The notes under the pieces were generated by a model. The model searched no databases, was not told the DNA's origin, and saw nothing but the letters and a program-made list of their open reading frames with translations. Below, one piece after another: positions 21,297-59,295 of a stretch of DNA of 64,000 nt. The stretch spans positions 9,067-73,066 of the forward strand of contig JAYTHE010000043.1 of NCBI GenBank assembly GCA_043732705.1, read 5' to 3'. The position numbers and the translations under genes are program-made. The DNA comes from Candidatus Omnitrophota bacterium (GTDB lineage Bacteria; Omnitrophota; Omnitrophia; Omnitrophales; Aquincolibacteriaceae). The first letter of the stretch is position 1, and each line of letters starts with the position of its first letter.

Positions 21297-21570
21297 GCAC
21301 TGCTCAAACAACGGATGCTGCGCACCGAACTCGCATTTCCAATTACTTTTTCATAACTTTCGCGATAGGGGGGGGTGGGGCTTGGATCAGAGAAACAAGG
21401 TTGAGAAAGCCAAGTCTGTCGAAGATGCCGCTATTCAACCTTGCCACGCCATAGCTCATTCTTAGAAGAAGTTTCCGGCTTTATCTTCCCATGGCTCGGC
21501 CGAGCTGAGCCATGGGAACGTTTTTCCATTTCGGGTTTCCCGAGATGAAAAAAGGTATGACGGGAAACTA
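21297..21570 (+). repeat. family-1 modular intergenic element, copy F
   Basis: The blocks are gctcaaacaacggatgctgcgcaccgaactcg (H2), ggggtggggcttggatcagagaaacaagg (B) and agtttccggctttatcttc plus hairpin CCATGGCTCggccgagctGAGCCATGG (C). Confidence 0.6.
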
Positions 21571-21934
21571 TTTTGATGACCTTGATGCCTAAGTGTGGAA
21601 ACGGTGAGATTGCGTTTCCATTACCTTTGAATTTCAAGACTTGTTTCTCACCTTATAGCCTCTCTCCCCAACATTGCGAAGATACTCAAAAAAAGAAGGC
21701 CAATTTACGAGTTTTGTGCCAAAGGACACAACTGTCTGAGTAAATGGACTTCTCTTTTTGAGCGTAATCCAGCGTTTATTTAATACTTACTTCAAAGAGA
21801 AAAATCATTACATGCGTCCGATAATATTGACCCGATTTTGACCTATTTTAAGACCTGAGTTGTTACTTGTCCCGCGTGCCTTCTGGCCTGTAGAATACCC
21901 GCTCTTCATTCTTCAGAACGGACGAATAAAAGTC

Positions 21935-23788
21935 ATGAACTCAAAATCTACTGAAAAAATAGCGGGGCGCAGTCTTTTTTTTAACGGGGAAATCCCACGC
22001 CTCATTTTTAAATTTTTAGCCTCGCTGCAGCTTGCGGTCGGGACTTTAGTTACGCTCATGATTGTGCTTGCCGCCGGGACCATCGTTGAGTCGCGGTACA
22101 GCGCCGAAGCCGCAAAAATTTTGGTTTATAACACGCCCTGGTTCGGCCTTATTTTAATTGTACTTGTGATTAATTTAGCGTGTTCCGCGGCGGACCGCCT
22201 GCCTTGGCAGAAAAAACATATTGGTTTTGTTCTGACACATTTGGGAATTATTACGATTCTTGCCGGATCTCTCGCGACGCAAACATCCGCAGTCGACGGG
22301 CAAATTATGCTGGAAGAGGGCGGCACCGGGAAATGGGTGACGCTCAAGCAGCCCATGCTTTATCTTTATTCCCAAAATTTCAAAGACGAGCGCATGCTTG
22401 CTTTTAGAGAACACGCGTTTAAATGGAAAGGGCGCGAGCGGGTATATTCGGCCGTGCTCGATAAAACTCGCCCGGCGTCTGCTGAAAATAAATCCGTGGA
22501 AGTTAATATAACGCAGTTTTGGCCCAAAGTGAATTCGGAAACAAAGTGGGTTCCGGCGGCCGAGGGCCCGGCGGCAATCCAAGTCACTTTGCATAATCAG
22601 AGAATGAATGTGACGCAGTGGGTCGTGGATGCAGAGCTCAGCCGCGAAGTTCAAATGGGGCCTGCCACGTTAAGATTTGCTTCCGAATTACTGCAGCCCG
22701 TTGCCGACATGAGCGATAAGCCTTATCTGGAAATTCAACGCGGCGATGAAAAGCTGCAAATTCCTGTTCCCGAAAAGAAAGCGCTGCCTTATGAAAAAAC
22801 TTTTGATAACGGGGTCAGCGTCAAGGTTACTGAACTTTATGACCATGCTTATGTCGAAGAAAATGTTTTGAAAGAAGGGTCGGCGCCTGAACACGCCGAA
22901 AATCCCGCAGCGGTACTGCAAATATCTGCCTCTGTGCCTTCGGCACAACTTAATTCTAGCTCTGCGCTTTCAGCGCAACCGCTAACGGAACAGCATACGG
23001 TGTTCGCAAATTTTCCTGATTTTCCCACGGTGCATGGACGCCCTGACAGCGCGTTGGGCGTTGTTGTTCAATACCGCCGTCCGAATTCAGGTTCCAAAGG
23101 CGAAAGCCATGAGTTGCGTTTTGTCGCGATGCCGGGCGGAATTCAATATCAAATTCAAACCGGAACAAAATTGCAGCAGGGGCCGGTTGAGCTAGGACGC
23201 GAAATTGGGACAGGCTGGATGGATTTGCAATTCCGCGTGGAGCAGGTTTTACCGCATGCCGTCTCCGATTTAAACGTTATCCCGCTTGATGATGATGACA
23301 AAAGTGACTCTGCTGCCGGCGCGGCTGAGATTGAAATTAAATCTGCTACGGAATCAAAAAAGTTTTGGGTCGTGGAAGGCGTTCATAAAAGCGTGATGTT
23401 TGACGACGGGCTTTTTGAAATTATTTTTGGCCGGCGTCAGCTCGGCCTCGGTTTTGAACTCGCGTTAAAAGATTTTCGCGTGAAAAACGATCCGGGCACC
23501 AATAAACCGGCCTCTTTTGAAAGCGACGTTGTTTTAAAAGATTTTGCGCGCGGAACCTCGGTTGAAAAAACGATTTCGATGAATCAGCCCCTGGCGTACC
23601 GCGGATTTAAAATTTATCAGGCGGGCTATACGCCGAATCCCGGCGGTAAGGATGTTTCGGTTTTTGCTGTCGGCCGTGATCCCGGTGTTCCGGTGAAATA
23701 TGCCGGCGCAATAATTATGGTGGCAGGCATTTTATTGATGTTTTATACGCGGCCTTATTCGCTCCGCAATGAAAAAGGACTCAAATGA
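21935..23788 (+). CDS. resB: cytochrome c biogenesis protein ResB/Ccs1 (system II)
   Basis: The N-terminus FKFLASLQLAVGTLVTLMIVLAAGTIVES is ResB-like, there is a long periplasmic domain, and a C-terminal TM segment. The gene overlaps ccsA by 4 nt. Confidence 0.75.
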   Translation: MNSKSTEKIAGRSLFFNGEIPRLIFKFLASLQLAVGTLVTLMIVLAAGTIVESRYSAEAAKILVYNTPWFGLILIVLVINLACSAADRLPWQKKHIGFVLTHLGIITILAGSLATQTSAVDGQIMLEEGGTGKWVTLKQPMLYLYSQNFKDERMLAFREHAFKWKGRERVYSAVLDKTRPASAENKSVEVNITQFWPKVNSETKWVPAAEGPAAIQVTLHNQRMNVTQWVVDAELSREVQMGPATLRFASELLQPVADMSDKPYLEIQRGDEKLQIPVPEKKALPYEKTFDNGVSVKVTELYDHAYVEENVLKEGSAPEHAENPAAVLQISASVPSAQLNSSSALSAQPLTEQHTVFANFPDFPTVHGRPDSALGVVVQYRRPNSGSKGESHELRFVAMPGGIQYQIQTGTKLQQGPVELGREIGTGWMDLQFRVEQVLPHAVSDLNVIPLDDDDKSDSAAGAAEIEIKSATESKKFWVVEGVHKSVMFDDGLFEIIFGRRQLGLGFELALKDFRVKNDPGTNKPASFESDVVLKDFARGTSVEKTISMNQPLAYRGFKIYQAGYTPNPGGKDVSVFAVGRDPGVPVKYAGAIIMVAGILLMFYTRPYSLRNEKGLK

Positions 23789-25506
23789 CAGTTCAAATCA
23801 GTATAAATAAAAAAATTATTTCCGGATTTCGTTTGTTAGCAGTTGGCTTTTTGCTAACGACCGTTTGCATGGGACAAGCCTGGGCTGCCGAAAAAAGCTG
23901 GCAAGAAACACTGTCCTCTATTCCCGTCCAGCAGGGCGGACGCGTTAAACCGTTTGAGTCTTTCGCGCGTGAAGCGATTTTATACGTTACGAGCCGAACC
24001 GCCTGGCATAAACAGCCTGCCACGCAAACAGTTTGGGAATGGATTGTGACTCCCGAAAAATGGATTTCCGAGCCGTTGATTTATGTGGCTGCGCCGCAGG
24101 TGCGGAGTGAATTCGGTTTAAAACTGATCGGAAAACGCGTTTCGGCTGAAGTTGTTATGGGCGAGAAAGCTTTTGTCCAAAAAGTGGAAGATGCTATCCA
24201 GCGCCGCGAGAAACACGGATCACTTTCTTTTACCGATAAAAAACGCATTGAAGTTTATGAGCGTGCGGTATTTTTATCCCAGCTGGGCGACGGCGAGTTT
24301 CCCGGCTGGATTCCTCAGCCGCAAACTCCGCAGGGCGCCTGGCTCAAGTTTGCTGATTTTGCCGCCGCGCCTGCGGAATGGATGCGCGACTTGCCGCAGA
24401 CAGAATTACAGAATTTTAAAAAATCCGCGGAAGAATTTGCCGCGCCCTTTAAAGCCGAAAAAACCGACGATGCCGCAAAGGCGATTGCCGCGCAGAACTT
24501 CAGAAAAACACTCGAGGCTGTTTGGTCGCGCGCGGGCATGGTCATGGACCAAAGTATTGTCGATAAAGAAATTTTTTATAACCGCCTGCATGCTTTTGGC
24601 CGCGGCTCTAAACTTTATTTGCTTGCGGCGCTTTTCTTTCTTCTTAATTTATTTTCGCGCCGCAGCCGGAAGCGTGACCGCAGTTATTCTTTGATTTTGG
24701 GCTTGGCGGCTTATGCCGGCGCGCTTTTACTGCATGCGCTTGGATTTTATTTACGCTGTACGATTTCCGGCCGCGCGCCTGTGACGAACATGTACGAATC
24801 GCTGGTTTGGGTTTCGCTCGCCGTCGCGGTTTTTTCGCTGCCGATTTATTATCATTCGCGGCATCTGACCGTGCTTGTGATTTCCTCTTTCGTTGCGGCT
24901 TTGGGTTTATTGCTTGCCGAATCTTTTCCGGCCGTGCTTGATCCGGCGCTTTCGCCGCTTGTGCCTGTATTGCGCAGCAATTTATGGCTGACCATTCACG
25001 TGTTGACGATTACGATGAGTTACGGTGCTTTCGCGCTGGGCTGGGGCTTGGGTCATGCGGTTGTTTTTGGTTATGCTTTTAGAAATACCGCCGCCAAAGC
25101 GGAAAGTTTAAACACGCTTGCGAACGCGGTTTACCGCGCGCTTCAAATCGGCGTAGTCCTGCTTGCTGCCGGAACTATTCTCGGCGGAGTTTGGGCAAAT
25201 TATTCGTGGGGCCGTTTTTGGGGCTGGGATCCGAAAGAGACTTGGGCTTTGATTGCCTTGCTCGGCTATCTGGTTGTTTTGCACGGAAGATTTATCGGCT
25301 GGTATGGCCCCTTTGGAATTGCGATGGGCGCGGTGCTCGCTTTTATGGGGATTGTGATGGCGTGGTATGGCGTCAACTTTGTGCTTGCGGCCGGACTGCA
25401 TAGTTATGGATTTGGCGGCGGCGGATATCCTTACGTTGCGTCGTTTGTTTTGGCGGACTTATTGTTGGTTGGTTTTGCGGCATGGAAACATAAAAGAAAA
25501 AGTTGA
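23785..25506 (+). CDS. ccsA: cytochrome c-type biogenesis protein CcsA/ResC with a long N-terminal extension
   Basis: The WWD motif WGRFWGWDPKETWALI is present, with multiple TM segments and conserved His. Confidence 0.8.
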   Translation: MTVQISINKKIISGFRLLAVGFLLTTVCMGQAWAAEKSWQETLSSIPVQQGGRVKPFESFAREAILYVTSRTAWHKQPATQTVWEWIVTPEKWISEPLIYVAAPQVRSEFGLKLIGKRVSAEVVMGEKAFVQKVEDAIQRREKHGSLSFTDKKRIEVYERAVFLSQLGDGEFPGWIPQPQTPQGAWLKFADFAAAPAEWMRDLPQTELQNFKKSAEEFAAPFKAEKTDDAAKAIAAQNFRKTLEAVWSRAGMVMDQSIVDKEIFYNRLHAFGRGSKLYLLAALFFLLNLFSRRSRKRDRSYSLILGLAAYAGALLLHALGFYLRCTISGRAPVTNMYESLVWVSLAVAVFSLPIYYHSRHLTVLVISSFVAALGLLLAESFPAVLDPALSPLVPVLRSNLWLTIHVLTITMSYGAFALGWGLGHAVVFGYAFRNTAAKAESLNTLANAVYRALQIGVVLLAAGTILGGVWANYSWGRFWGWDPKETWALIALLGYLVVLHGRFIGWYGPFGIAMGAVLAFMGIVMAWYGVNFVLAAGLHSYGFGGGGYPYVASFVLADLLLVGFAAWKHKRKS

Positions 25507-25675
25507 TTCAAAATAATTTTTTGTCCTGCTCGAACGCAAAACATTTTTGTGCTTGGGATTTATTCGTTGTCATTGCGAGAGAGCGTAGCGACCGAAGCAA
25601 TCTCGAGATTGCCACGTCGGCTTTCAGCCTCCTCGCAATGACGCGGTGTTAGAATTTAGAGTTTAAGAAAAGAGT

Positions 25676-26563
25676 ATGAAAAAATTACACAATCTTAGTT
25701 TGTTCGCGGCATTTTCGGGAATGGTGCTGATTGTTGCCGGTGGTCTTGTAACGAGTCATCAGGCGGGGCTTTCCGTCCCTGATTGGCCGCTGTCTTACGG
25801 CAAGCTGATGCCGCCGATGATCGGAAAAATTTTCTGGGAACATGGGCATCGCATGATCGCGAGCTTTGTCGGGTTTCTCACGCTTGTGATGTGTATCTGG
25901 ACGCATTGCCAAAGCGGTGCGAGCGCGAAACTGAAAAGCTTTTCACGGGTATTGGTTGAGCTTGTAATTTTGCAGGGCGTTTTCGGCGGCCTCACCGTGC
26001 TTTACAATTTGCCGCACGCAGTTTCAATCTTGCACGCTTCGCTCGGCCAGATTTTTTTTAGTTCGCTGGTTTGTTTTGCTTATGCCGTTAAATGCGAAGC
26101 CGAGCCGTTATTGTTTCAGATTTCCGATGAGAAGAAGCCTCTTCTTGTTAAAGCTTTCCGGATCGCTCGTGTCACCGCTTTTATTTTTCTCTTTCAACTT
26201 TTTTTAGGTGCCGCGACTCGGCATATGAAACACATGCATGTGGCCTGGACGCACGCGGGCTTCGCCTTAATCGTTGCAACGCATGTTGTTTTGGTTTTCT
26301 TGCGGGTTTCCGGACTGCATCTGGAAGATCAAGCGCCTTTGCGCGCGTCGGTATTTTTACTCGGCGCGGTTATGCTGCAACTCGTGCTCGGCGCAGGGAG
26401 CCTTGGTTTTACGCAATTTATGGAACGCGGCCTTCAGCCTTCCACCATGCAAATTTGGTTTACGACTTTCCATCAAAGTTTGGGCGCTGCACTTCTGGCA
26501 ACCATCGCACTTTTAACTTTGATGCTGGCGAAACGGGTCAAGATTTCTTCAGGCGCGCGTTAA
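25676..26563 (+). CDS. ctaA: heme A synthase (CtaA/COX15 family)
   Basis: It is a polytopic membrane protein with HQAGLSVPDWPLSYGKL..EHGHRM motifs. The stop overlaps the ctaB ATG (TAATG). Confidence 0.7.
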   Translation: MKKLHNLSLFAAFSGMVLIVAGGLVTSHQAGLSVPDWPLSYGKLMPPMIGKIFWEHGHRMIASFVGFLTLVMCIWTHCQSGASAKLKSFSRVLVELVILQGVFGGLTVLYNLPHAVSILHASLGQIFFSSLVCFAYAVKCEAEPLLFQISDEKKPLLVKAFRIARVTAFIFLFQLFLGAATRHMKHMHVAWTHAGFALIVATHVVLVFLRVSGLHLEDQAPLRASVFLLGAVMLQLVLGAGSLGFTQFMERGLQPSTMQIWFTTFHQSLGAALLATIALLTLMLAKRVKISSGAR

Positions 26564-27435
26564 TGCTGAAAACCCTCGCGGAATTGACGAAAATCCGGCT
26601 GGTTTTTTTAACGCTTTTAAGTGCAATGGCCGGGTTTTATCTGGCGCCCGGAAAATTTAATTTTTTTGCTTTTCTTTGCATGGCTTTCGGAACAGGAATC
26701 GCCGCAGCCGGCGCGATGGCCCTGAATGAGTGGATGGAAATCGAAGAAGACCGGAAAATGAAGCGCACTGAAAAGCGTCCGCTGCCTTCCGGCAAGGTGA
26801 AGCCCGCCCACGCTTTTTGGATCGGATTTATTCTTTGTATTTTGGGTTTCGCGATTTTGATTTTAACTTTGCCCGGGCTTTGCGCGCTGGTGACAATCAG
26901 TATTGTAGGTTCTTATCTTTTTGCTTATACGCCCGCAAAGAAAAAATCATCGCTGAATACGATCATTGGGGCAGTCCCGGGCGCTTTGCCGCCGGTTGCC
27001 GGCTGGGCCGCAAGTACGGGGCATTTGTCTTTTGAAGCGTGGATTTTAGCGAGCATTATTTTTTTATGGCAGCTGCCGCACTTTTTGTCTTTGGCGTGGG
27101 TATACCGCGCGGATTATGAAAAAGCCGGCTTCGTGATGCTGACCGTGGAAGAAAAAAATCCGGCGCGTATCCGTGAAAAAGTCATGCTGTATACTTTTGC
27201 TTTAGTGCCCGTAAGCCTTCTGCCGTCGCTTACGGGATTAACCGGAAAGATTTATTTTTTTGGCGCGCTGGGACTTGGAATCGGTTTTTGCTGGAAAGCG
27301 CTGAAAGATTTGCGCGATTTGGATAAAGGCGCAAAGCCTTTTTTCTTTTATTCGATTTTTTATTTATTTTTGCTTCAGCTCTTAATGGTTTTTGACAAAC
27401 AACATGAAGTCAGTCTTCAGGCGGTAACTCAGTGA
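26563..27435 (+). CDS. ctaB: protoheme IX farnesyltransferase (heme O synthase)
   Basis: UbiA-family motifs NEWMEIEEDRKMKRTEKRPLPSG and YRADY are present. The start is ATG 26563, not the ORF-track 26455. Confidence 0.85.
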   Translation: MLKTLAELTKIRLVFLTLLSAMAGFYLAPGKFNFFAFLCMAFGTGIAAAGAMALNEWMEIEEDRKMKRTEKRPLPSGKVKPAHAFWIGFILCILGFAILILTLPGLCALVTISIVGSYLFAYTPAKKKSSLNTIIGAVPGALPPVAGWAASTGHLSFEAWILASIIFLWQLPHFLSLAWVYRADYEKAGFVMLTVEEKNPARIREKVMLYTFALVPVSLLPSLTGLTGKIYFFGALGLGIGFCWKALKDLRDLDKGAKPFFFYSIFYLFLLQLLMVFDKQHEVSLQAVTQ

Positions 27436-28370
27436 TTCGTATCGAAAATCTCGAATTCAGTTATAAAACAAAAAAAGTTTTAAACGGTCTCAGCCTGGAA
27501 ATTCCGGACGGAACTGTTTTTGGCATGCTTGGACCGAACGGCTCCGGCAAGACAACTTTATTTCGAATTTTAAGCACCATGCTTGCTCCGCAAAAAGGCA
27601 GTGTGACTTGGCTCGGCTATGACCTGGCGCGTGAGGCCGCCGCAGTCCGTGCAACTTTAGGCGTGGTTTTTCAATATCCGAGTTTGGACCCGCAGCTTAC
27701 TATCGAAGAAAACTTAAAATGCCAGGGCGCTTTATACGGTCTCGGAGGAAAAGAGCTGCAGGCTAAAATCGAAGACCGCTTAAAAAAGCTAGGGGTTTGG
27801 GATCGCCGTACTTCAAAAGCACGGGAACTTTCGGGTGGCTTGAAACGCCGTGTTGAGCTTGCGAAAGCCTTAATCCATGAGCCGCAGGTTTTGCTTTTAG
27901 ACGAACCTTCCACTGGTTTGGACCCGCGCGCGCGCGCCGAACTTTGGAATTTCCTTTTGGAGTTAAACCGTGAAAAGAAAACGACCATGCTTGTGACGAC
28001 GCATTTGATGGAAGAAGCCGAAAAATGCTCACGCCTTGTGATTATGGACGAGGGCCGTGTTATCGCGCAGGGAACGCCGTCCGAATTAAAATCGGGACTT
28101 GGCGTGGGATCAATTTGGATTGAAACCGAAGAGCTTGCCGATCTGGATTCGGCGATTCAAAAAAGATTTCAAATTAAACCTGTACGCGTTCCGACGGGGC
28201 TGAAATTGAATCATGCCGAACCGCACCGCTTGATCGCCGATTTGATCGAGGCTTTTCCCGGCAAGATGGACTCGGTCGCTTTTCACAAGCCCAGCTTGGA
28301 AGATGTATTTTTACAAAAAACCGGGCGCATTTTTGAAGCCGGAGAGGTTGTGGTCCATGGAAAAAAATAA
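27432..28370 (+). CDS. ABC transporter ATP-binding protein
   Basis: Walker A GPNGSGKTT, the signature LSGGLKRRV and Walker B LLLDEPSTGLD are present. The GTG start overlaps the ctaB stop. Confidence 0.85.
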   Translation: MIRIENLEFSYKTKKVLNGLSLEIPDGTVFGMLGPNGSGKTTLFRILSTMLAPQKGSVTWLGYDLAREAAAVRATLGVVFQYPSLDPQLTIEENLKCQGALYGLGGKELQAKIEDRLKKLGVWDRRTSKARELSGGLKRRVELAKALIHEPQVLLLDEPSTGLDPRARAELWNFLLELNREKKTTMLVTTHLMEEAEKCSRLVIMDEGRVIAQGTPSELKSGLGVGSIWIETEELADLDSAIQKRFQIKPVRVPTGLKLNHAEPHRLIADLIEAFPGKMDSVAFHKPSLEDVFLQKTGRIFEAGEVVVHGKK

Positions 28371-29738: not shown

Positions 29739-29741
29739 AAA

Positions 29742-30155: not shown

Positions 30156-30185
30156 AACGCCAAAGTTAGACTCGAATGTGTGATT

Positions 30186-30440
30186 TATCTCAAAAGATAA
30201 ATTCAGATCTGTTCAGACAGCGCCGTTTTGGCGCGGCGAACTCACATCTCTGAATTTACTTTTGAGATACGGCGCAATATAGGGGTGGAGAGGCAATAAG
30301 CGGAAAAACAACGCCGTCCTACTTTATTACTCGAAGATTCCATATTTTCAAGCTGCTCTAGGCGTCGAAGAGATAAATAGTTTTCTGTTATATCCTTTTC
30401 TTGGCCCAGCCGCAGCCGGGCCAAGAAAAGAGAAAGAAGG
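30186..30440 (+). repeat. family-1 modular intergenic element, copy A
   Basis: The outer stem atctcaaaagataaattcagatctg / catctctgaatttacttttgagat encloses H2 (cagacagcgccgttttggcgcggcgaactc). Block B is ggggtggagaggcaataagcgg. Block C is agttttctgttatatcc plus hairpin CTTGGCCCagccgcagccGGGCCAAG. Confidence 0.6.
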
Positions 30441-30562
30441 CTTCAAAAATACGCTGTTTTTGCCGATACAGTTTCTTCAGAGATTCGCTATTATTTTTAA
30501 AGTTTACGAGGCCGCTGCCTGAAAGACAGAGCCTTAATTAATACAGCGCAAGGAGACAGAAC

Positions 30563-35947: not shown

Positions 35948-36039
35948 TATTTAAATAGAATTGATTTAAGAAAGCCTGAACAGAAATGTTCGAGCTTTCT
36001 TAATTTAAGATCGTACTCAAAAGGGTAAGAGTCTTTAAA

Positions 36040-36350
36040 GAAAAATTCATCCGCTCAGACAGCGCCGTCTTAACGCGGCGAACTCGCGGACTGAATTTTT
36101 CTTCCAAAGCCTTCTGCGCATAGCTGGGGTGTTGGGTTGTGATCAGAGAAGCAAAGTGCGCTGCTAAATGATGAGAGGCGCAACCGCATTTGTCGCCGCA
36201 TAAAGTCTTAAGGTTCTTCAAATAGCTTCCCACCATACCTTCTTTTTGGCTCTGCAAAGCAGGGCCAAAAGAAAGATGAACAAGGCTGTCAAAGTAGCTT
36301 CCCGTCTTGTTTTTCACAGTTTCGGAAAATCAGAAACTGTGAAACGAATG
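36040..36350 (+). repeat. family-1 modular intergenic element, copy B (with a duplicated C-like module)
   Basis: The outer stem gaaaaattcatccgc/gcggactgaatttttc encloses H2. Block B is ggtgttgggttgtgatcagagaagcaaag. Block C is atagcttcccaccataccttc plus hairpin TTTTGGCtctgcaaagcaggGCCAAAA. A second agtagcttccc module carries a CACAGTTTC/GAAACTGTG hairpin. Confidence 0.6.
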
Positions 36351-36785
36351 CTTACCTTTTTTTGAGAGCGAAAAAAGGTAAGGAAGGACCTTGGCTGGTT
36401 AAAGGGGAGACATTGAATTGCGTTCATAAATCGTTTTATGGGCGCAGTTTTGACGAGCCACTGTTTTATTTTCCTCTGCGCTAAGCGCAACCGTTTTACC
36501 GGCATCGCTTTGCTAAGCCGGTAAAAGATAAAATGGGAAACTAGTTTGCTGAGGTTGAGGGGTATCGTTGCAAAATAATCATAGAGCTTTCGAGAAATTC
36601 AGAATTCACTAGCTTGTTTCTCTGCTAATTGCTTCCACCGACCCTTATGCAGCAGTACTTTTAAATTAGGATTTAGATTGCGAGTTCTGCGCCGTAGGAC
36701 GCAGTTGTTTGAGCAGGATAAATCTTAATTTAAAAATAAACACGAAAAGAATAAATCAAAAAGCGCAGAGCATAGACATAAAAAA

Positions 36786-36816
36786 AGCCGCACCTTTTTC
36801 AGATGCGGCTTTTTAA
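36786..36816. terminator. bidirectional hairpin terminator (AGCCGCA..TGCGGCT flanked by A/T runs)
   Basis: The sequence aaaaAGCCGCAcctttttcagaTGCGGCTtttt lies immediately 3' of the minus-strand gene 36827-37402. Confidence 0.5.
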
Positions 36817-41086: not shown

Positions 41087-41718
41087 CCATGGACTATAGA
41101 CTATGGACAATCGACAAATGGAAGGTCTGTTGTCTATGGTCGATAGTCTATTGTCTCAGCGGCGGTTTATCGCTGAGCGCGAATGAAGTTTTGAATTCGC
41201 GGGAAATTAAAATGCCGGAACGCGGCGCGCAAGTGATGGTGCGCGAAAATTCAAAAACGGGTACGCCTTATATTGTGCTGAGCGACCCGCTGAATCCGCG
41301 TAAAGATTTGGCGTTGCTTGATTCCAATAAGTATCGCCGTCCGGATTACCGCATGCTACAAAAAGGTGTGAATGCCAAAGACGTGAATTATGACGGGCCG
41401 TACAGCTCCAAGAAAAAAATTTATATTCTTGCCGCAACCCTTGCAACTGCCGGAGCCACGGCGGCCGTGGTCGGGCCGGCGTTATTTCCGGCTGCCGCGG
41501 CAACGGGAGCTGTGGGCAGCGCGGCCGGCCCCGCGATTGCGGCGGGCGTGGGCGGCAGTGCTTTAGCGGCAGCGGCGAATGCTTATCAAGAGCATTACAA
41601 GAATCTGCCTGATGATTACAATCGTGAGTCTGAATCAAAGATTATTGAGACCGAAACCGATTTTTACAAAATGCATGTTGCAAAGGTGAAGAGCACACCT
41701 TTGCAAGGCCAAAACTAA
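41083..41718 (+). CDS. hypothetical protein with an Ala/Gly-rich central region
   Basis: It overlaps the previous stop by 4 nt. I see no recognisable domain. Confidence 0.35.
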   Translation: MTMDYRLWTIDKWKVCCLWSIVYCLSGGLSLSANEVLNSREIKMPERGAQVMVRENSKTGTPYIVLSDPLNPRKDLALLDSNKYRRPDYRMLQKGVNAKDVNYDGPYSSKKKIYILAATLATAGATAAVVGPALFPAAAATGAVGSAAGPAIAAGVGGSALAAAANAYQEHYKNLPDDYNRESESKIIETETDFYKMHVAKVKSTPLQGQN

Positions 41719-41800
41719 AATCTTAAAGCTTAAAACTATAACTTAAAGCCCAAAGCTGTTCGGTCAGTTTTGAGCTTTGACCTTTAACCTTTGAGTTCGC
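41719..41800. repeat. family-2 AT-rich palindromic element, copy b
   Basis: The sequence is aagcttaaaactataacttaaagcccaaagctgttcggtcagttttgagctttgacctttaacc. Confidence 0.55.
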
Positions 41801-43507: not shown

Positions 43508-43625
43508 TAACTAAAAATTTAAATCTAAAAGCTCAAAGCTATAACGCAGAATATAAAATGTTCGAAACGATTTTAAGTCTTGCGCCATAGTTTTGGCCTT
43601 TTAGCTATTAGCTTTAACCTAGGAA
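43508..43625. repeat. family-2 AT-rich palindromic element, copy c
   Basis: The sequence is aaaagctcaaagctataacgcagaatataaaatgttcgaaacgattttaagtcttgcgccatagttttggccttttagctattagctttaacc. Confidence 0.5.
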
Positions 43626-45557: not shown

Positions 45558-45595
45558 ACTCGCAAGCTGCGGCAGAAGCAAAAAGAAACAATCAG

Positions 45596-45815
45596 AGGGC
45601 TCAAACAGTCCTCGGCTTCGCCTGCGGAACTCGCCCTCTTATTATTTCTTTTTACTTTTCAGCCAAAGTGGGGTGGAGGCAAGAAGCAGAGAAGCAAAGT
45701 GCGCTGCTAAGTAATTTGAAATGCTGCCTGCGTTATGCCTGCCGTAGGTCTCAAGGCTTTCTAAGTAGCTTCCTGTCATATCTTCTTTTGGTTCTGCAAA
45801 GCAGTGCCAAAAGAA
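45596..45815 (+). repeat. family-1 modular intergenic element, copy C
   Basis: The blocks are gctcaaacagtcctcggcttcgcctgcggaactcg (H2), gtggggtggaggcaagaagcagagaagcaaag (B) and agtagcttcctgtcatatcttc plus hairpin TTTTGGttctgcaaagcagtgCCAAAA (C). Confidence 0.6.
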
Positions 45816-45875
45816 AAGTTGTAGAAATATTGCAGCTTATGCGGTTGAGCGAAGCTCAGAGCGTAAATATTACAG

Positions 45876-46898: not shown

Positions 46899-46920
46899 TT
46901 TATTTTTGGAAAAATTGAAG

Positions 46921-49161: not shown

Positions 49162-50757
49162 ATGGAAAACGAAATCTCAAAACGGCGTACGCTCGCGATT
49201 ATCGCGCATCCTGATGCGGGTAAAACTACGCTCACCGAAAAGTTTTTGCTTTACGGTGGTGCGGTGCAGCTCGCAGGCTCTGTTACGGCGCGCAAGCAGC
49301 AGCGCGATACAGCCTCCGACTGGATGGAGCTTGAAAAGCAGCGCGGCATTTCAATCAGCTCGACTTTGCTGCAATTTGATTATGGCCCGTGGCGCATTAA
49401 CCTGCTCGATACCCCGGGGCATAAAGATTTCTCCGAAGACACTTACCGGGTTTTGATGGCGGTTGACGCGGTTATCATGGTGATGGACGGGAGCAAAGGC
49501 ATTGAAAGCCAAACGCGTAAACTTTTTGAAATCTGCCATCGCCGCAAAATTCCGATTTTTACTTTCGTCAACAAAATGGACCGCCCGAGTTTGTCACCGC
49601 TTGAGCTCATTGACCAGCTTGAAACCGTTTTAAAAATCAATGCCTATCCGATTAATTGGCCGCTTGGAAACGGTAAAGATTTTAAAGGTATTTATGACCG
49701 CGTGAACAAAGAAGCGCATTTGTTTGAACGTGTGCCGGGCGGATCTTATCGCGCGCCGGTTTCAGTCGGCGGATTTTCCGACCCCTTCGTCAAAAGCAAA
49801 ATGGATGAACAAAGCTACGCGAATGCGGCCGAAGAGTTGGAGATTTTAGAGCAGGCGCATGTTGATTTTGATACCGACGCGGTCATTAGCGGGGAAACCA
49901 CGCCGGTTTTCTTCGGCAGCGCGGCCAATAACTTTGGCGTGGAGCTTTTGTTAAAAGGTTTTCTTAAATACTCTCCGGGGCCGACTGCCCGCAAAAGTGG
50001 TGGCGTGATTGTTCCGGTGGATGATAAAAAGTTTTCGGGCTTTGTTTTTAAAATGCAAACCAATATGGATCCGATGCATCGCGATCGCATTGCTTTCATC
50101 CGTGTTTGCGGAGGAAAATTTACACGTGATCTGCAGGTGATTAATGTGCGGACAGGCGATAAAGTGCGGCTCGGTAGCACGCATAAACTTTTTGGGCAAA
50201 ACCGTGAAGTGGTGGAAGACGCATATGCCGGCGATATTTTGGGCGTGGTTGTGAAAACCGATTTTCGTGTTGGTGATACGGTGACGGAAGATACAAGCAT
50301 TGTTTATCGCGAAATTCCGAAATTCGCGCCGGAATGTTTCGGATATTTGACAAATCCCGAGCCGGGAAAATATAAGGCTTATCGCAAAGGCATTGAACAA
50401 TTGCTCGCGGAAGATATCGTGCAGGTTTTTGAACAAAAAGAACCCTGGAAAAGCGATGCGCTGCTCGGGGCGGTGGGGCCGTTACAATTTGAAGTTTTGC
50501 AGTTTCGTTTGGAAAGTGAATATGGCGCGAAGTCCACGCTCACACGCGCGCCCTGGCAATTTTTGCGCTGGCTGGATACGCAGCTTGACGATCAGGCTTT
50601 GAAGCTTAAAATTCCGGCGGGCGGAGCCATGGCGCTAGATGAGCAGGGCCGGCGCGTGATTATTTTTTCGAATGAATGGTCATTGAATTATTACCGCGAA
50701 AAAAATACAGACATTGCTCTGTACGATTCGCCGGATTTGATTCCAATCAATCATTAA
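49162..50757 (+). CDS. prfC: peptide chain release factor 3
   Basis: The motifs RRTLAIIAHPDAGKTTLTE and DTPGHKDF (GTPase) and NKMDR are present. Confidence 0.9.
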   Translation: MENEISKRRTLAIIAHPDAGKTTLTEKFLLYGGAVQLAGSVTARKQQRDTASDWMELEKQRGISISSTLLQFDYGPWRINLLDTPGHKDFSEDTYRVLMAVDAVIMVMDGSKGIESQTRKLFEICHRRKIPIFTFVNKMDRPSLSPLELIDQLETVLKINAYPINWPLGNGKDFKGIYDRVNKEAHLFERVPGGSYRAPVSVGGFSDPFVKSKMDEQSYANAAEELEILEQAHVDFDTDAVISGETTPVFFGSAANNFGVELLLKGFLKYSPGPTARKSGGVIVPVDDKKFSGFVFKMQTNMDPMHRDRIAFIRVCGGKFTRDLQVINVRTGDKVRLGSTHKLFGQNREVVEDAYAGDILGVVVKTDFRVGDTVTEDTSIVYREIPKFAPECFGYLTNPEPGKYKAYRKGIEQLLAEDIVQVFEQKEPWKSDALLGAVGPLQFEVLQFRLESEYGAKSTLTRAPWQFLRWLDTQLDDQALKLKIPAGGAMALDEQGRRVIIFSNEWSLNYYREKNTDIALYDSPDLIPINH

Positions 50758-50760
50758 TAC

Positions 50761-51085
50761 TGCTCAAACAGTCAGTCTCATCCTATTTGTTTTGAGATGA
50801 GACACAGCGCTGAGTATTTTTTAATGGCTAAGCCATTTACTTAAACGAAGCGCTAGTCGGCTTCGCCTGCGGAACTCGTAAATTCAATCTTTTTAACCTG
50901 AGCTTTTTCGCGGTATGGTTGGGTGGCAATTAGCAGAGAAACAAGCTGCTCTGCAAATTCTATCGAAACGCATACATGCTTTTTCCTAAATAAATTCCTC
51001 AAGGTGTGCAGGCATAGTTTCCTCTCATATCCCTTCCTCTGGCTCGGAACGAGCTAGAGGAAGTAAGCAAGAATTTAATTTTGGC
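50761..51085 (+). repeat. family-1 modular intergenic element, copy D (with a 5' terminator module)
   Basis: The terminator module is GTCTCATCC..GAGATGAGAC plus a T-run. H2 is ggcttcgcctgcggaactcg. Block B is ggttgggtggcaattagcagagaaacaag. Block C is atagtttcctctcatatcc plus hairpin CCTCTGGCTCGgaacCGAGCTAGAGG. Confidence 0.6.
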
Positions 51086-51139
51086 AAACGCTAGCAGTTT
51101 TATCTTGCGCGCGAAACAGCGGGCTTTATTTTAAGTGGT

Positions 51140-51340: not shown

Positions 51341-51441
51341 AAAAGCTCCTTGTGCCTCTTAAAACATAGCTTATTTATCGGCATAAAGCGAATCGGGTAA
51401 ACCGCCGATAATTTCTCAAACAGCATTCAATGGGGGCATTT

Positions 51442-51798
51442 ATGAAAAGATCCGGTTTTAGAAATTCAATGGCTTGTTTCGTTTTTATTCTTTTTCTTAT
51501 TCCGAAAATTAGTTTTGCTTTGCCGATGAGCGACTTTCCCGCGAGCCCCTGGACAAAAAAGGACGGCTATGTCGCGAAAACCGTGAGCAAGCTGGGGTTT
51601 GGCCTGATGAATGTCGCCGGCGGCTGGACTGCGGTGGTCAGCGAATTTTATGAACCGCCGCAGGATAATATTGCTGCCTTAGGCCTGCGCGCGATTGCGC
51701 GTGTTGTGACGAACACGGTCGGCGGCGCTTTGCATGTTGTGACTTTTCCGGTTCCGGTTGATATTCGTCTGCCCGGCGGAGGAACTACCTTCGAATAA
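51442..51798 (+). CDS. small secreted protein, GRGF-motif family paralog
   Basis: There is a signal peptide. The family motif is KTVSKLGFGLMNVAGGWTAVVSEFYEPP...HVVTFPVPVD. Confidence 0.5.
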   Translation: MKRSGFRNSMACFVFILFLIPKISFALPMSDFPASPWTKKDGYVAKTVSKLGFGLMNVAGGWTAVVSEFYEPPQDNIAALGLRAIARVVTNTVGGALHVVTFPVPVDIRLPGGGTTFE

Positions 51799-51854
51799 AA
51801 ACGGCTGACGAAACAACGCAAGCGGCTTCAAGCAAAACTTAGTTAGATTGTCTT

Positions 51855-52095
51855 CAAAAACATATCCCGAATTACTCAGGCAGCCGATGCTGCGCTCGGA
51901 ACTCGTAATTCGGGATATTTTTTTGAAAGCTTATTCGCAATGGTGGGCAAGAAACAATTAGCAGAGAAACAAGGCTTCGTAATCTAAGTTAGCGGAGACG
52001 CAATCTCAATTTTCTCCCCTTCTGCCTCGAACATCAAAGTAGTTTCCTGTTGTATCTTTTTTTTGCTCTGCTGAGCCGAGCAAAAAAACGCATGA
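51855..52095 (+). repeat. family-1 modular intergenic element, copy E
   Basis: The outer stem aaaaacatatcccgaattac/gtaattcgggatattttt encloses H2 (gatgctgcgctcggaactc). Block B is aatggtgggcaagaaacaattagcagagaaacaagg. Block C is agtagtttcctgttgtatctt plus hairpin TTTTTGCTCtgctgagccGAGCAAAAA. Confidence 0.6.
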
Positions 52096-52142
52096 CGGGA
52101 AGCTTTATTTTAAATGCCGATCCATGAAATATTTTTTGAAGA

Positions 52143-52946: not shown

Positions 52947-53021
52947 GTAGAATTCGATCTCCTTTGAGCCCTAAAGGCCGCCATTGTAAGGGCTTATTGA
53001 GCTTGAAGCAACAATGAGGAA

Positions 53022-53140
53022 TAAGCTTAAAAGTCAAAGCTCAAAAGTAAAAACCATAGCTTAAAGCCCAAAACTGTCCGGGCAGTTTGAAGTTTTGGAC
53101 TATAGTTTTTGCCTTTTACTTTTAACCTTTAACTTTGTAC
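53022..53140. repeat. family-2 AT-rich palindromic element, copy d
   Basis: The sequence aagcttaaaagtcaaagctcaaaagtaaaaaccatagcttaaagcccaaaactgtccgggcagtttgaagttttggactatagtttttgccttttacttttaacctttaac forms a long imperfect palindrome around tccggg. Confidence 0.55.
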
Positions 53141-53174
53141 TAAATCATTTTTTAATAAGCACGGGAGATTTTTC

Positions 53175-54260: not shown

Positions 54261-54341
54261 TTTTTCTAGGCCGAAGTAGTTTTTAAGTCTCGAGCCTCGG
54301 GGCTTCGGCCTCCGGGCTTAAATTTCTGAAAGGAATTTATT

Positions 54342-55271
54342 ATGAGTTATCCGAAAGTAACGGTTGTGGGCGCGGGTTTCGTAGGGGCCACAACAGCGCA
54401 GCGCATTTTAGAAAAAGAAATTGCCGACGTGGTTTTGATTGACGTTGTTGACGGCCTGCCGCAGGGCAAAGCGCTTGATATGATGGAATCCGCGCCGACC
54501 GAAAAATTTAAAACTAAAATCACGGGTACAAATAATTACGCTGATACCGCGAACTCTGATGTTGTTGTGATTACCGCCGGTCTCGCGCGCAAACCCGGAA
54601 TGACACGTGATGATTTGCTTTTCAAGAACGCTGAAATCGTTGGCGGCATTGTTGAAAACATCGTGAAGCATTCGCCGAAATGTATTTTGATTATCGTGAC
54701 GAATCCGCTCGACGTTATGGTTTACCTGGCCTGGAAAAAATCCGGCTTTGATCCGAAACGCGTGATCGGTATGGCAGGCGAGCTTGACTCTGCGCGTATG
54801 GCTTATTTTATTGCTGAAAAGACAGGCGCATCCGCGGCCGAAGTTGACGCGGTTGTGCTCGGCGGCCACGGCGACCAAATGGTTCCCGTTCCCGCGCATA
54901 CAAAAGTTAAGGGTAAGCCCGTGGCGCAAGTCCTTGATAAAGACACGATTGAAAAAATTAATCAGCGTACACGCGACGGCGGGGCCGAAATTGTTGCCCT
55001 TCTCAAAACCGGCTCAGCTTATTACGCGCCTTCCGCTTCGACGACCCGCATGGTGCGCTCGATTCTTCAGGACAAAAAAGAAACGATTGCGAGCTGTGTT
55101 TTGCTGAAAGGCGAATACGGCATCAAAGATGTTTTTGTCGGCGTTCCGGTCGTGCTCGGCAGAAACGGCGTTGAAAAAGTTGTTGAACTTTCTCTGACAC
55201 CCGAAGAACAAACGGCTTTAAACGTGTCAGCCGCGCACGTCAAAGAAAACTGCAGCAAATTGAAATTTTAA
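54342..55271 (+). CDS. mdh: malate dehydrogenase (LDH-like MDH)
   Basis: The Rossmann motif [13 protein letters not shown] is present, with IVTNPLD and a catalytic His in GGHGD. Confidence 0.9.
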
Positions 55272-55336
55272 TCAACCAGAAGCAACCTTGCACACATCCG
55301 ATGTGTACAAGGTTGTACACATCGGATGTGTGCAAG

Positions 55337-58078
55337 GTGGGAAATGTGGATTCCTTTAAAAGCAAATCTGTTTTGAATGTTGGCGGAAAAACTTTCGCCA
55401 TTTTTAAATTAGCGGCGGTGAAAAATCTTCCGGGCCTACCGCTCGAGCAATTACCTTATTCGGTGCGTATTCTTCTCGAAAATCTTTTGCGCCGCGAAGA
55501 CGGCAAAGCCGTTACCAAAGCCGATATTGAAGCGCTGCGCAATTGGAGCCCGAAAGAAAAATCCCTGAAGGAGATTGCTTTCACGCCCGCGCGCGTGATC
55601 TTGCAGGATTTTACCGGCGTGCCTTGCGTTGTCGATCTCGCCGCGATGCGCGACAAAATGCAAGAACTCGGCAAAGATCCGAAAAAAATTAATCCGCTTG
55701 AGCCCGTTGACCTCGTTATTGACCATTCGATCCAGGTTGATATGTTCGGCAACGCCAACGCGCTTGCCGATAACACGCGCATTGAGTTTGAGCGCAATCA
55801 GGAGCGTTACGAATTTTTAAAGTGGGGCCAAAAAGCGCTCTCTGATTTTCGTGCCGTGCCGCCGGGCATGGGCATTGTGCATCAGGTGAATCTTGAATAT
55901 CTTGCGTCAGTCGTCATCACCAAGCGACTTTCCAAGCCCTCACCCTCGCCCTCTCCCGAAGGGAGAGGGGAAAGTGAAGAGGTGCTTGCTTATCCCGACA
56001 CCTTGGTCGGCACCGACTCGCACACTGTGATGATCAACGGCCTCGGCGTTCTCGGTTGGGGCGTGGGCGGCATCGAAGCCGAAGCTGCGATGCTCGGCCA
56101 GCCTTCATCCATGCTTATTCCCGAAGTGGTCGGATTTAAACTCACCGGCAAGCTTCCCGAAGGCGCAACCGCCACTGATTTGGTTTTGACCGTTACGCAA
56201 ATGCTGCGCAAAAAAGGCGTCGTCGAAAAATTTGTTGAATTTTACGGCGCGGGCCTCGATGCCTTGTCACTTGCCGACCGCGCGACGGTTGCGAATATGG
56301 CACCCGAGTACGGCGCGACTATGGGATTTTTTCCGGTCGACAATGAAACGCTTAATTATTTACGCGTCACCGGCCGCAGCGAAGCACAAGTCAGCCTCAT
56401 TGAAACTTATTTGAAAGAGCAGGGGCTTTTCCGCACCGCAAATTCGCCCGACCCTGTTTTCAATGATACGCTCGAACTTGATCTTGGAACTGTCGTGCCT
56501 TGCCTTGCCGGCCCGAAACGCCCGCAGGATCGCGTCGCATTGCCCGATGTTAAAAGTAATTTCAAGACGGCCTTGCCCGGTTTGCAAAATCAAAAAGCTG
56601 GCGCAACCGCCGTGGTTGACCGCGCGCTGGTTAAATACGCGGGCCAAGAATTTATACTCGAAGACGGCTTTGTCGCGATCGCCGCAATCACAAGCTGCAC
56701 GAATACATCGAACCCGAGCGTTCTGATGGCCGCGGGCCTGCTCGCGAAAAAAGCCGCTGCGCTCGGGCTCAAATCCAAACCGTGGGTTAAAACATCGCTC
56801 GCGCCCGGATCCAAAGTCGTCACCGAATATTTACGCGCGTCCGGCCTTTTGCCCGAACTTGAAAAAATCGGTTTCTATCTCGTGGGTTATGGCTGCACCA
56901 CCTGCATCGGAAATTCCGGGCCGCTGCCGCCTGAAATCGGCAAAGCCGTGAAAGAACACAGCCTCGTTGCTTCCGCTGTTATTTCCGGCAATCGCAATTT
57001 TGAAGGCCGTGTGAATCCGCTTGTGAAAGCAAACTATCTCGCATCGCCGCCGCTGGTTGTGGCGTATGCGTTAGCAGGAACAGTCGAACGCGATCTCACT
57101 AAAGAATCGCTCGGCACTGACCACACCGGCAAGCCGGTTTATCTCAAAGATATTTGGCCGAGCAATCAGGAAGTTGCCGCCGCCGTTCAGCAGGTGACGC
57201 GCAAAATGTTTGAAAAAGAATATGCCGTTGTTTTTGACGGTGATAAAAATTGGCAGTCGATCCAGGTTGCGTTGGGCGACACATTCAAATGGAATCCGAA
57301 ATCGACTTACATCAAAAAAGCCCCGTACTTTGACGGCATGGCCGCGGTTCCCGCGCCACTCACGGATATTAAAGACGCGCGCGTGCTCGTGATGGTGGGC
57401 GATTCCGTGACCACCGACCATATTTCTCCCGCGGGCAATATTGCAAAAGACGGCCCGGCCGCGAAGTATTTAATGGAAAACGGCGTAAGTGAAAAAGATT
57501 TCAATTCCTACGGTGCGCGCCGCGGCAATCATGAAGTCATGGTTCGCGGAACTTTCGCCAATATCCGTTTAAAAAATTTACTCGCGCCCGGCACCGAAGG
57601 CGGGGTGACGCGCCTGCTTCCTGAAGGCAAGCCCATGTCCATTTTTGATGCCGCGCAGGAATATAAGAAAAACAAAGCTCCGCTGATTGTCATTGCCGGC
57701 AAAGAATATGGTTCCGGCTCTTCGCGCGATTGGGCCGCGAAAGGTCCGATGCTGCTTGGTATTAAAGCCGTGATCGCGGAAAGCTTTGAACGCATTCACC
57801 GCAGTAATTTAATCGGCATGGGAATTTTGCCGCTTATCTTTACTGCCGGACAAACGCCTGCTTCGCTTGGCTTAACCGGCGAAGAAGCTTTCACGATCGA
57901 AGGTATTCCAAGCATTACGCCCGGGCAAATGTTACATATCCGCGCCCGCTCTGGAAATTCAACCGCGGGCGCAGAGAAAACATTCACCGTCAAATGCCGC
58001 ATTGATACGCCCGTGGAATTAGACTATTACAAACACGGCGGAATTCTTCAATACGTTCTGCGCCAACTTCTCAAATGA
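55337..58078 (+). CDS. acnA: aconitate hydratase A
   Basis: Aconitase motifs are present throughout, including the Fe-S ligand Cys triad ([16 protein letters not shown]) and the SR motif. The start is taken as GTG about 55337; the ORF-track ATG 55301 lies inside a palindrome. Confidence 0.85.
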
Positions 58079-58611
58079 GCGCAGATAAGAAAATCTACAA
58101 ACCAAAAATCGGGCGACACGTTTTTGTGCACCCGTCTGCGGTGGTTGAAGGCCGTGTCACGATCGGTGATTACTCTTCCGTTTGGCCCAACTGTGTTTTG
58201 CGCGGTGATATTAATGCCATCAAAATTGGAAAACGCACAAATATTCAGGATCTTTCAGTTTTGCATGTTGAAAACAACCGCGCCTGCATTTTGGGTGATG
58301 ATGTGACGATCGGCCATCAAGTGACTTTGCACAGCTGCACGGTTAAACGTTACGCCTTAGTCGGTATTCAAGCCATTGTTCTGGACGGCGCGGTGGTGGG
58401 GGAATGCTGCCTGGTGGGCGCTGGCGCGCTTGTCACGCATAATCAAAAACTGAAACCCTGTTCGCTTTATATGGGCCGTCCCGCCAAATACATCCGCCCG
58501 CTGAAACCCGATGAAATCAAAAAACTCAAAGCCTGGGGCAAACGCTACGTTAAATATTCTGCTGATTACATGACCGGTAAATTCAAAAGCGTTCATCTGC
58601 TGCGTTCATGA
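58075..58611 (+). CDS. gamma-carbonic anhydrase / hexapeptide-repeat family protein
   Basis: There is a left-handed beta-helix hexapeptide pattern with a metal-binding His (LHSCTV..). It overlaps acnA by 4 nt. Confidence 0.75.
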
Positions 58612-58949
58612 ATCAACCGTCTTTCATGGAAAAACAGGAAGATAATATTGCGCCGCATATTTTTTCCGTGTCGGCAGGCATGATCGGCGTTTGCCTAACG
58701 GTCATCAGCCTTATTAATATCAGCAGCGCCATCCGGAAAAGCAACACGCTCGGCGATGATTTAACCGCGATCGATGCGGTGGTATTTATCTTCTCCTGCT
58801 ATCTGGCTTATATGGCTATGAAAACCAAAGACAAAAAGAGACGGCTATTTCTTGAAAAACTGGCCGACCGTGTATTTTTGTCCGGCCTTTTTCTGATGGT
58901 TTTGGTTTGCGTCTTCGTGGTTTATACCTTTTCCTTCAGAGCCGCCTGA
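58608..58949 (+). CDS. small membrane protein (3 TM)
   Basis: It has hydrophobic helices and overlaps the previous stop by 4 nt. Confidence 0.4.
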   Translation: MNQPSFMEKQEDNIAPHIFSVSAGMIGVCLTVISLINISSAIRKSNTLGDDLTAIDAVVFIFSCYLAYMAMKTKDKKRRLFLEKLADRVFLSGLFLMVLVCVFVVYTFSFRAA

Positions 58950-59029
58950 CATATTTTTATTCTGGGCTCTGCCCAACCACGGCGTAATTTTTAGTTCTGT
59001 TCGCTGGCGCGAACAACCACCGGGCCCCA

Positions 59030-59295
59030 CCGCATTTCAAATCCTTTCTCTTGGTGCGGCTTTGCCGAACCAAGAGAAGGTAAAACAGGAAACTTGTTTG
59101 CTGGGTTTGAAGCACAGTGTGGCAATATTAATAGACGAACCTTCGAAAAATTCTGATTTTTCCACCTTGTTTCTCCTTTTATCGCCTCTCCTCCTACATT
59201 GCGCTTATGTCTTTAGAATGAAGGCGCATAATGCGAGTTCGCCGCCTCGGGACGGCGCTGTTTGAGCAGTATGAATCTCTCGTCAAAGGCTAAGG
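59030..59295 (-). repeat. family-1 modular intergenic element, copy G (reverse orientation)
   Basis: The reverse complement reads tgctcaaacagcgccgtcccgaggcggcgaactcg (H2), ggaggagaggcgataaaaggagaaacaag (B) and caagtttcctgttttaccttc plus hairpin TCTCTTGGTtcggcaaagccgcACCAAGAGA (C). Confidence 0.55.

Follow-up and report, generated by a model that had tools for sequence, protein, structure and literature searches.

Bacterial interspersed mosaic elements (BIMEs) contain two alternating types of unit, Y and Z, and the repetitive extragenic palindromes (REPs) are hairpin-forming units of 20–40 nt. ERIC and BOX elements are repeats of 100–300 nt made of ordered modular blocks with stable folds, lying in transcribed intergenic regions. 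The REPs of E. coli are presented in a preprint as 3′-untranslated region (3′-UTR) elements that act as partly Rho-dependent terminators and as mRNA stabilizers (bioRxiv 10.64898/2026.03.23.713779). Here we analyze a repeat of comparable layout in a 64,000-nt stretch of DNA, hereafter the window, from a Candidatus Omnitrophota bacterium (GenBank assembly GCA_043732705.1, contig JAYTHE010000043.1, positions 9,067–73,066). A sequence-only reading had described this repeat as a modular intergenic element of about 250 nt in at least seven copies, with compensatory changes in its terminal hairpin. We found that its natural unit is a ~490-bp inverted heterodimeric doublet, in which an alpha and a beta arm meet at a hairpin, P4, and that the element is under purifying selection at each locus, where it is kept in position and in shape.

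The seven copies originally listed (A–G) were all found where they had been placed, with their three ordered blocks and the quoted hairpin stems. Two full minus-strand copies, Ar and Cr, each tail to tail with a plus-strand copy, had been overlooked, as had an extra block C with its hairpin and a remnant of a partner arm (Table 1). Motif searches and an nhmmer profile together place nine full arms, plus fragments, between 21 and 59 kb of the window. The combined pattern CTCARACAR-N14-22-RAACTCR-N45-75-GARAARCAA occurs six times in the window and not once in 100 dinucleotide shuffles of it.

One arm is ~245 nt long and has four helices, P1–P4. The outer stem P1, of ~25 bp in single-sequence folds, is copy-specific, has its 5′ arm marked by an A-run and its 3′ arm by a T-run, and encloses a near-invariant asymmetric internal loop whose 5′ strand reads UCAAACAG and whose 3′ strand reads AACUC. 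This loop contains most of the invariant columns of A1, our alignment of 62 full-length arms. P2 is a GC-rich hairpin in which, judged by eye, a U-G beside the loop-closing pair is fixed in most variants. P3 is a long-range helix of 5 bp that joins block B (GAAAC) to block C (GUUUC) across ~85 nt, and P4 is the terminal hairpin of 11–16 bp, T-rich on its 5′ arm and A-rich on its 3′ arm. P1-P2 folds with a z-score of about −5.5, and P4 with one of about −5. The middle part, closed by P3, is mostly unstructured and subfamily-specific; within the P3 domain we detected neither structure above chance (z about −0.2) nor a common fold.

The RNAalifold consensus of A1 comprises 37 pairs, which we compared with shuffled and slid controls. 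Standard pairs fill 90.2% of the cells, compared with 66.1% after shuffling and 38.5–49.4% after sliding. Both sides are changed in 577 cells (167 shuffled, 105–158 slid), and the covariation score is 0.642 (0.200 shuffled, 0.11–0.16 slid). Double changes were seen in 35 of the 37 pairs, and none of 500 shuffles matched the alignment in any of five measures. Covariation therefore survives proper alignment and lies far above both controls, which bears out the earlier description of a modular, structured intergenic repeat of BOX/ERIC-type layout. The compensatory change reported for the terminal hairpin is indeed present there, but it extends to all helices, including the long-range block B–block C helix that had escaped notice. 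P3 occurs as GAAAC/GUUUC, GAAGC/GCUUC and AAAAC/GUUUU, and since the switches between these variants are found in several subfamilies and between positional orthologs, they represent repeated independent events.

The ~250-nt unit of the sequence-only reading is real as well, except that it is usually one arm of the doublet. Over the window, metagenome-assembled genomes (MAGs) and metagenomes we collected at least 126 nhmmer matches, 92 of which form 46 convergent pairs (plus strand, then minus) with arms that meet or overlap at P4. The hairpin taken to be terminal thus sits at the center of the doublet, either as one palindromic P4 shared between inverted block Cs or as two P4s side by side, one per arm, as in A/Ar. 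From outer P1 base to outer P1 base, doublets have a median length of 493 bp (range 458–560). The 34 unpaired matches comprise six modules consisting of P1-P2 only, ~20 longer arms, several of which are truncated by the end of the locus or were overlooked by the pairing rule, and several short C/P4 fragments or mirror matches. By the interval between blocks B and C, arms sort into clear subfamilies, which we grouped into an alpha type (cluster 16 in the window and in the genome JAYSWD01, described below; clusters 1, 2 and 15 in more distant genomes) and a beta type (clusters 12, 13, 9, 11, 14, 3 and 6, among others). Among 34 typed doublets, 28 combine alpha with beta, three are alpha+alpha and three beta+beta, whereas random pairing predicts 17 of the mixed kind; the statistic is soft, because the alpha set was defined after the clusters had been seen. 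Partner arms share 0.485 identity, compared with 0.490 for random arms. Being no closer than random, they are neither products of recent inverted duplication nor able to fold arm on arm.

Age and position are a further point that the sequence-only reading missed: the copies are old, keep their places and have not spread recently. Within a genome, arms have a mean identity of 0.52 and a maximum of 0.77, and there are no recent copies. A second genome, JAYSWD01 ('Candidatus Omnitrophota bacterium GFS_12873'), is 81–87% identical to the coding DNA of the window and syntenic with it in gene order, so we regard the window as belonging to a sister species. All seven loci of the window (A/Ar, B, C/Cr, D, E, F and G) are occupied at the syntenic position in JAYSWD01. 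The differences between the two are losses: the partners of B and F have been deleted in the window, leaving a block C remnant, D has no partner in the window, and E has decayed in JAYSWD01. At 4-fold degenerate sites of seven flanking orthologous genes, identity is 0.516 (n = 1132). Every region of the element is more alike between orthologs than these sites: 0.86 in the core loop and P2, 0.81 in P4, 0.80 in block C, 0.71 in block B, 0.68 in both the P1 stem and the variable part, and 0.59 in the first linker, all of them conservative values because gaps were scored as mismatches. Shape is preserved too. Of 259 stem pairs compared between orthologs, 31 have changed on both sides and 12 on one side yet remain paired, and 33 are broken in one species.

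Two further arrangements bear on the history of individual loci. Copy D is of the beta2 type and its positional ortholog in JAYSWD01 (L062, 7284–7572) of the alpha type; the two have P1-P2 in common (0.81 and 0.94) but not the interior and P4 (0.48), a mosaic that suggests module exchange or gene conversion between copies. Two tandem paralogs of the gene at 27432–28370 of the window precede a doublet both in CAZSVD01 (L065, 5524–7491) and in a Ga0163150 contig (L116, 6300–8401). This may be positional conservation at greater depth, though the arm types differ.

How widespread is the family? We scanned one genome per species for 185,579 species with the combined pattern and obtained at least 100 stretches, so the distribution given here is a lower bound. 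Among the stretches listed, the nhmmer profile confirmed the family in two genomes only, JAYSWD01, with at least 31 loci, and CAZSVD01 ('uncultured bacterium SRP135725_co2_92'), with at least six; each of the remaining stretches proved in the same check to be a lone chance match. A stricter pattern retrieved further genuine copies from metagenome contigs Ga0163150/Ga0163151 and JACCDZ01, representing two or three metagenomes, and a scan of a viral contig collection returned no matches. The CAZSVD01 and metagenome loci that we compared have no orthologous genes in common with the window. As far as the listed stretches (at least 100) show, the element is therefore restricted to a small group of uncultured Omnitrophota. 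The sequence family had not been recognized from the sequence alone, and searches agree with this: the entire window has no match in Rfam 15 at the gathering score, and in E-value mode the segment 35950–36850 gave just weak matches, which came from terminator hairpins outside the element. A literature search on Omnitrophota (Omnitrophica) repeats and on their intergenic or palindromic elements found nothing relevant. The family is thus not previously described in Rfam or in the literature searched.

We next consider where the copies lie relative to genes, which were called simply as long open reading frames (ORFs). Doublets are found 18 times between convergent genes, 16 times between tandem genes and three times between divergent genes. 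Among 25 single copies, 19 have their P1 end next to the 3′ end of a co-oriented ORF (binomial p = 0.015), and all five scorable P1-P2-only modules lie between two genes on the same strand, 0–52 nt past the stop codon of an ORF of their own orientation. P1 often begins 0–40 nt from the stop codon and in copy E overlaps the end of the RF3 gene. Given this bias, P1-P2 is expected to be present in the transcript, in the orientation used by the sequence-only reading, as the first 3′-UTR structure. The statement made there that five copies face a convergent gene was imprecise: C, D and F precede a minus-strand gene, A, B and E lie between two plus-strand genes, and G is antisense between two plus-strand genes. 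The flanking genes are of the housekeeping kind and encode RNase H, cytochrome c biogenesis proteins, leucyl aminopeptidase, an ABC-F protein, RF3, inositol monophosphatase, isocitrate dehydrogenase, aconitase and citrate synthase. Elsewhere, this citrate synthase was found only on a 3.8-kb Logan contig (SRR23617244).

Among described repeats, the REPs and BIMEs of proteobacteria and the REP doublets known as REPINs come closest. They are likewise extragenic, biased to gene 3′ ends and convergent pairs and rare between divergent genes; they form hairpins, occur mainly as inverted doublets, with singlets as decayed doublets, and have two alternating unit types, Y/Z in BIMEs and alpha/beta here. 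A role as a 3′-UTR terminator or stabilizer would by analogy be plausible for our element. On the other hand, its arms are several times longer than REPs, it has no conserved GTAG/CGTC-tagged palindrome but just a loose [GAC]TAG ~18 nt before P4 in block C, its P1 and P4 stems are copy-specific instead of conserved, and its copies are ~50% identical, with none recent and with loci common to two species. We know of no RAYT associated with this family. ERIC and BOX elements, from enterobacteria and pneumococcus, resemble it in the modular layout outlined above, but have neither the heterodimeric doublet nor the long-range B–C helix. Copies of ERIC and BOX are much more alike within a genome, and the element is not known to be related in sequence to either.

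Other comparisons are more distant. In phage T7, RNase III processing hairpins are intergenic and have an asymmetric internal loop set between a lower and an upper stem. They share with P1-P2 the stem–loop–stem plan and the location between genes, but are not known to be similar in sequence, and the lower stem is much longer here. RNases specific for double strands naturally act on long, near-perfect duplexes, and one cut would leave a protective 3′ hairpin. Like miniature inverted-repeat transposable elements (MITEs), doublets have arms that are inverted homologs, yet each copy has its own sequence in the P1 stem that forms the outermost 25 bp, no near-identical copies exist, all seven loci are also occupied in JAYSWD01, and target-site duplications are absent. 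The alpha/beta rule and selection at the level of the locus set the element apart from both REPs and MITEs. Palindrome-associated elements derived from IS200/IS605 (PATEs) have similar subterminal hairpins at the left and right ends of one strand and a TnpA/TnpB gene in full-length relatives; here, P2 and P4 resemble each other neither in sequence nor in form, and no TnpA/TnpB-type ORF is enclosed. Integron attC sites have R″/R′ motifs (RYYYAAC ... GTTRRRY) at the base of a hairpin of 57–141 nt and form co-oriented cassette arrays; here, P1 is variable at its base, with many A- and T-runs, the conserved motifs are near the top, the neighbors are housekeeping genes and the sites stand in convergent pairs.

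Taken together, we favor the view that the repeat is an old, vertically inherited, lineage-specific cis-element maintained by the host, of BIME/REPIN-like layout and acting at the 3′ ends of transcripts, and give it a probability of roughly 45%. The family, its anatomy and covariation, the heterodimeric doublets, the positional conservation with purifying selection and the bias to gene 3′ ends are all observed directly, whereas transcription of the element, termination or stabilization, and protein binding we infer solely from its position and architecture. P1-P2 would be transcribed as the first 3′-UTR structure of the adjoining gene and, by analogy with REPs, could halt or attenuate read-through and shield the 3′ end of the upstream mRNA from exonucleases. 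The invariant loop might serve as a docking site for a protein, and the doublet, as a series of three strong hairpins, would insulate convergent or tandem neighbors. In polarity and position, P1 recalls bidirectional intrinsic terminators: whichever strand is read, the A-run lies on the 5′ arm and the T-run on the 3′ arm, and P1 begins 0–50 nt past stop codons.

Several observations weigh against this view. P1 is not a textbook intrinsic terminator, in which a GC-rich stem leads directly into a U-run: its stem of ~25 bp is AT-rich, also at its base, and continues for ~5 pairs beyond the T-run, and a loop separates the T-run from the GC-rich P2; moreover, it encloses a conserved insert of 45 nt, and the element runs on for another 150 nt. 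A simple terminator scan did not pick out the P1 hairpins, and near copy F it returned only a 6-pair P1 sub-hairpin on each strand. Some neighboring genes have a classical terminator of their own before the element (35965–36005 and 36782–36814), and ~30% of arms adjoin a gene start. One-sided changes, mostly to G-U, account for 51 cells next to the 577 double changes. G-U and A-C occur equally often in P4; in P1, A-C outnumbers G-U on the strand of the sequence-only reading, on which P2 has its fixed U-G. Such rarity of G-U and symmetry of strands fit a DNA palindrome as well as RNA. The symmetry also fits folded single-stranded DNA (ssDNA), or RNA read from both strands of the doublet. P3, which covaries as a 5-bp helix over 85 nt, requires some single-stranded state. 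Finally, neither the conserved unstructured middle nor the alpha/beta rule is assigned a specific role. A bolder version of the proposal would assign one: the doublet would be a host-maintained two-armed device of a new class, made of RNA or folded ssDNA and not selfish DNA, in which a dedicated protein reads the UCAAACAG/AACUC loop of P1-P2 and the alpha and beta middles have distinct locus-specific roles. Together they would define and insulate transcript ends, partly replacing ordinary terminators, in a phylum of ultra-small, possibly host-dependent bacteria. As a whole, we consider this version unlikely.

The chief rival sees in the repeat what is left of a non-autonomous mobile element once mobilized as ssDNA, REPIN/RAYT-like or derived from IS200/IS605, with the doublet as its replicative unit; its P1-P2 and P4 hairpins would have been read by an HUH/Y1 enzyme supplied in trans, and the copies would now be immobile and partly decaying. 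Inverted doublets predominate, and a singlet results when one of the arms is lost, as has been described for REPINs (PMC3116915). Pairing is nearly pure Watson–Crick with neither strand preferred, as for a DNA palindrome or folded ssDNA, and modules stand alone and recombine, as the P1-P2-only copies and the mosaic of copy D attest. By eye, the asymmetric conserved loop beside the fixed U-G hairpin resembles a protein recognition site, and the two alternating arm types recall the Y and Z units of BIMEs. The age of the copies speaks against mobility, however. None is recent, partner arms are no more alike than random ones, and all seven loci are common to two species with near-saturated synonymous sites. 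The termini are not conserved either, as the outermost P1 stem is copy-specific. Comparing the 12-nt flanks outside 30 doublets with flanks paired at random, we saw no excess of shared k-mers, the longest included, and thus no sign of target-site duplication, although old copies could have lost theirs. With conserved terminal repeats and target-site duplications both looked for and not found, the copies are not fragments of an insertion sequence or MITE, in line with the sequence-only reading. A transposase-like ORF was not found enclosed by or adjoining any arm. We also considered an ORF-bearing master copy and rejected it: genes between or beside arms are ordinary, and the inter-arm gene of L084 appears, from its translation by eye, to encode an SPFH-like protein. 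A tblastn search of ~430 kb of carrier-genome sequence for a Y1 transposase with an IS200 TnpA sequence as query was empty, a weak result. Moreover, all regions evolve more slowly than 4-fold sites, unlike an inert relic. We therefore judge this explanation somewhat unlikely. It is nevertheless compatible with a host-maintained 3′-end element, REPs being thought to be both.

Readings of the arm as a gene have little support. Each arm might be a small RNA (sRNA) gene, possibly read outward from the center with P1 as its terminator and with the middle part, which on the reverse strand is C/U-rich and contains CCUCC, as its seed for other RNAs. Such a design fits the architecture, in which a conserved but unstructured middle accompanies a strong T-run hairpin at the end; this middle is under purifying selection and falls into discrete subfamilies. 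The reverse strand folds at lower energy in 51 of 62 copies for P1-P2 and in 53 of 62 for the P3 domain, but this advantage is compositional, as z-scores are equal (−5.65 vs −5.33 and −0.17 vs −0.32). Promoter and terminator scans of the element gave matches at chance level and no conserved promoter-like motif. Nine arms in 64 kb imply tens to at least 100 loci per genome with different middles, unlike known families of trans-acting sRNAs, and the bias of the P1 end to co-oriented gene ends indicates read-in from the gene rather than an autonomous sRNA gene. Accordingly, the sRNA reading strikes us as quite improbable. Still less can be said for the alpha arm as a small peptide gene, with GGAG followed 7 nt later by GTG in block B, which would make the doublet a small-protein or type I toxin–antitoxin-like locus. 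Copy G does have a 42-codon ORF behind GGAG-N7-GTG, and the peptides translated from several alpha arms look alike. The copies do not conserve a start codon, however, and most alpha copies need a frameshift between two similar segments or contain stops (~5 of 27 are open in one frame, by eye). Indels are not multiples of three, the putative ORF crosses the covarying helices of P3, block C and P4, orthologs differ mostly by non-synonymous changes, and the product is not hydrophobic. A coding element was thus rejected; the peptide reading is already largely refuted and to us hardly credible, and we treat the element as non-coding.

Next to nothing is known of gene regulation in the uncultured Omnitrophota, which gives interest to a large, multi-copy non-coding feature with strong covariation. 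The element is also a good test case for the long-standing question whether interspersed palindromic repeats persist through usefulness to the host or through mobility. If it does mark transcript ends, it could aid operon annotation in these MAGs.

Table 1. Arms and fragments of the repeat in the window. P1–P4, helices of the arm.
Feature	Position	Strand	Parts and remarks
Copy A, alpha arm	21269–21520	+	P1 21269–21370; conserved core and P2 21303–21332; block B ~21372–21401; block C 21467–21489; P4 21488–21517
Copy Ar, beta1 arm	21521–21773	−	convergent doublet with A; own P4 21521–21552; P1 21676–21773
Copy B	30177–30431	+	P1 30177–30276; block C ~30376–30397; P4 30395–30431
Block C remnant, lost partner arm of B	30432–30447	−	partner intact in JAYSWD01 ortholog L054
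Copy C, beta2 arm	36023–36278	+	P1 36023–36119; P4 36234–36278
Additional partial unit	36281–36351	+	second block C, then P4-like hairpin
Copy Cr, alpha arm	36494–36749	−	convergent with C; P1 36643–36749; P4 36494–36526
Copy D, beta2 arm	45563–45824	+	P1 45563–45672; P4 ~45781–45815; partner in JAYSWD01 (L062, 7043–7312)
Copy E	50735–51063	+	P1 5′ arm overlaps RF3 gene end; P4 51034–51063
Copy F, beta1 arm	51852–52088	+	P1 51852–51928; P4 52056–52088
Block C remnant, lost partner arm of F	52089–52126	−	full-length partner in JAYSWD01 (L062, 2117–2392)
Copy G, alpha arm	59044–59288	−	P1 ~59211–59288; P4 59044–59079; P1 end toward citrate synthase gene start

Two copies have peculiarities of their own. 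In copy E, an insertion of ~80 nt (50772–50852) made of three small hairpins parts CTCAAACAG from P2; its JAYSWD01 ortholog (L062, 3264–3372) is without the insertion and has decayed to P1-P2 and part of block B. The interval between C and Cr contains, after the additional partial unit, a terminator-like hairpin at 36351–36382, and the JAYSWD01 ortholog of C/Cr (L054, 1475–1997) is a compact doublet.

The window also holds a second, unrelated repeat family of ~85 nt, at 578–662, 41706–41790 and 53024–53108, and also at 1041–1073 and 43589–43620. It has AAAG every 9–10 nt in its left half, CTTT/AGTTTT in its right half and a central palindrome, GCTGTTCGAACAG. At 55283–55337, two overlapping palindromes of ~24 nt, CAACCTTGCACACATCCGATGTGTACAAGGTTG and TACACATCGGATGTGTGCAAGG, can form a 20-bp stem. 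They overlie the aconitase ORF's first ATG, at 55301. Translation probably starts further downstream, so that the palindromes may represent an operator or a translational hairpin. Finally, positions 2963–18148 are occupied by a single giant ORF of 5061 aa, which fits reports of very large proteins in Omnitrophota.

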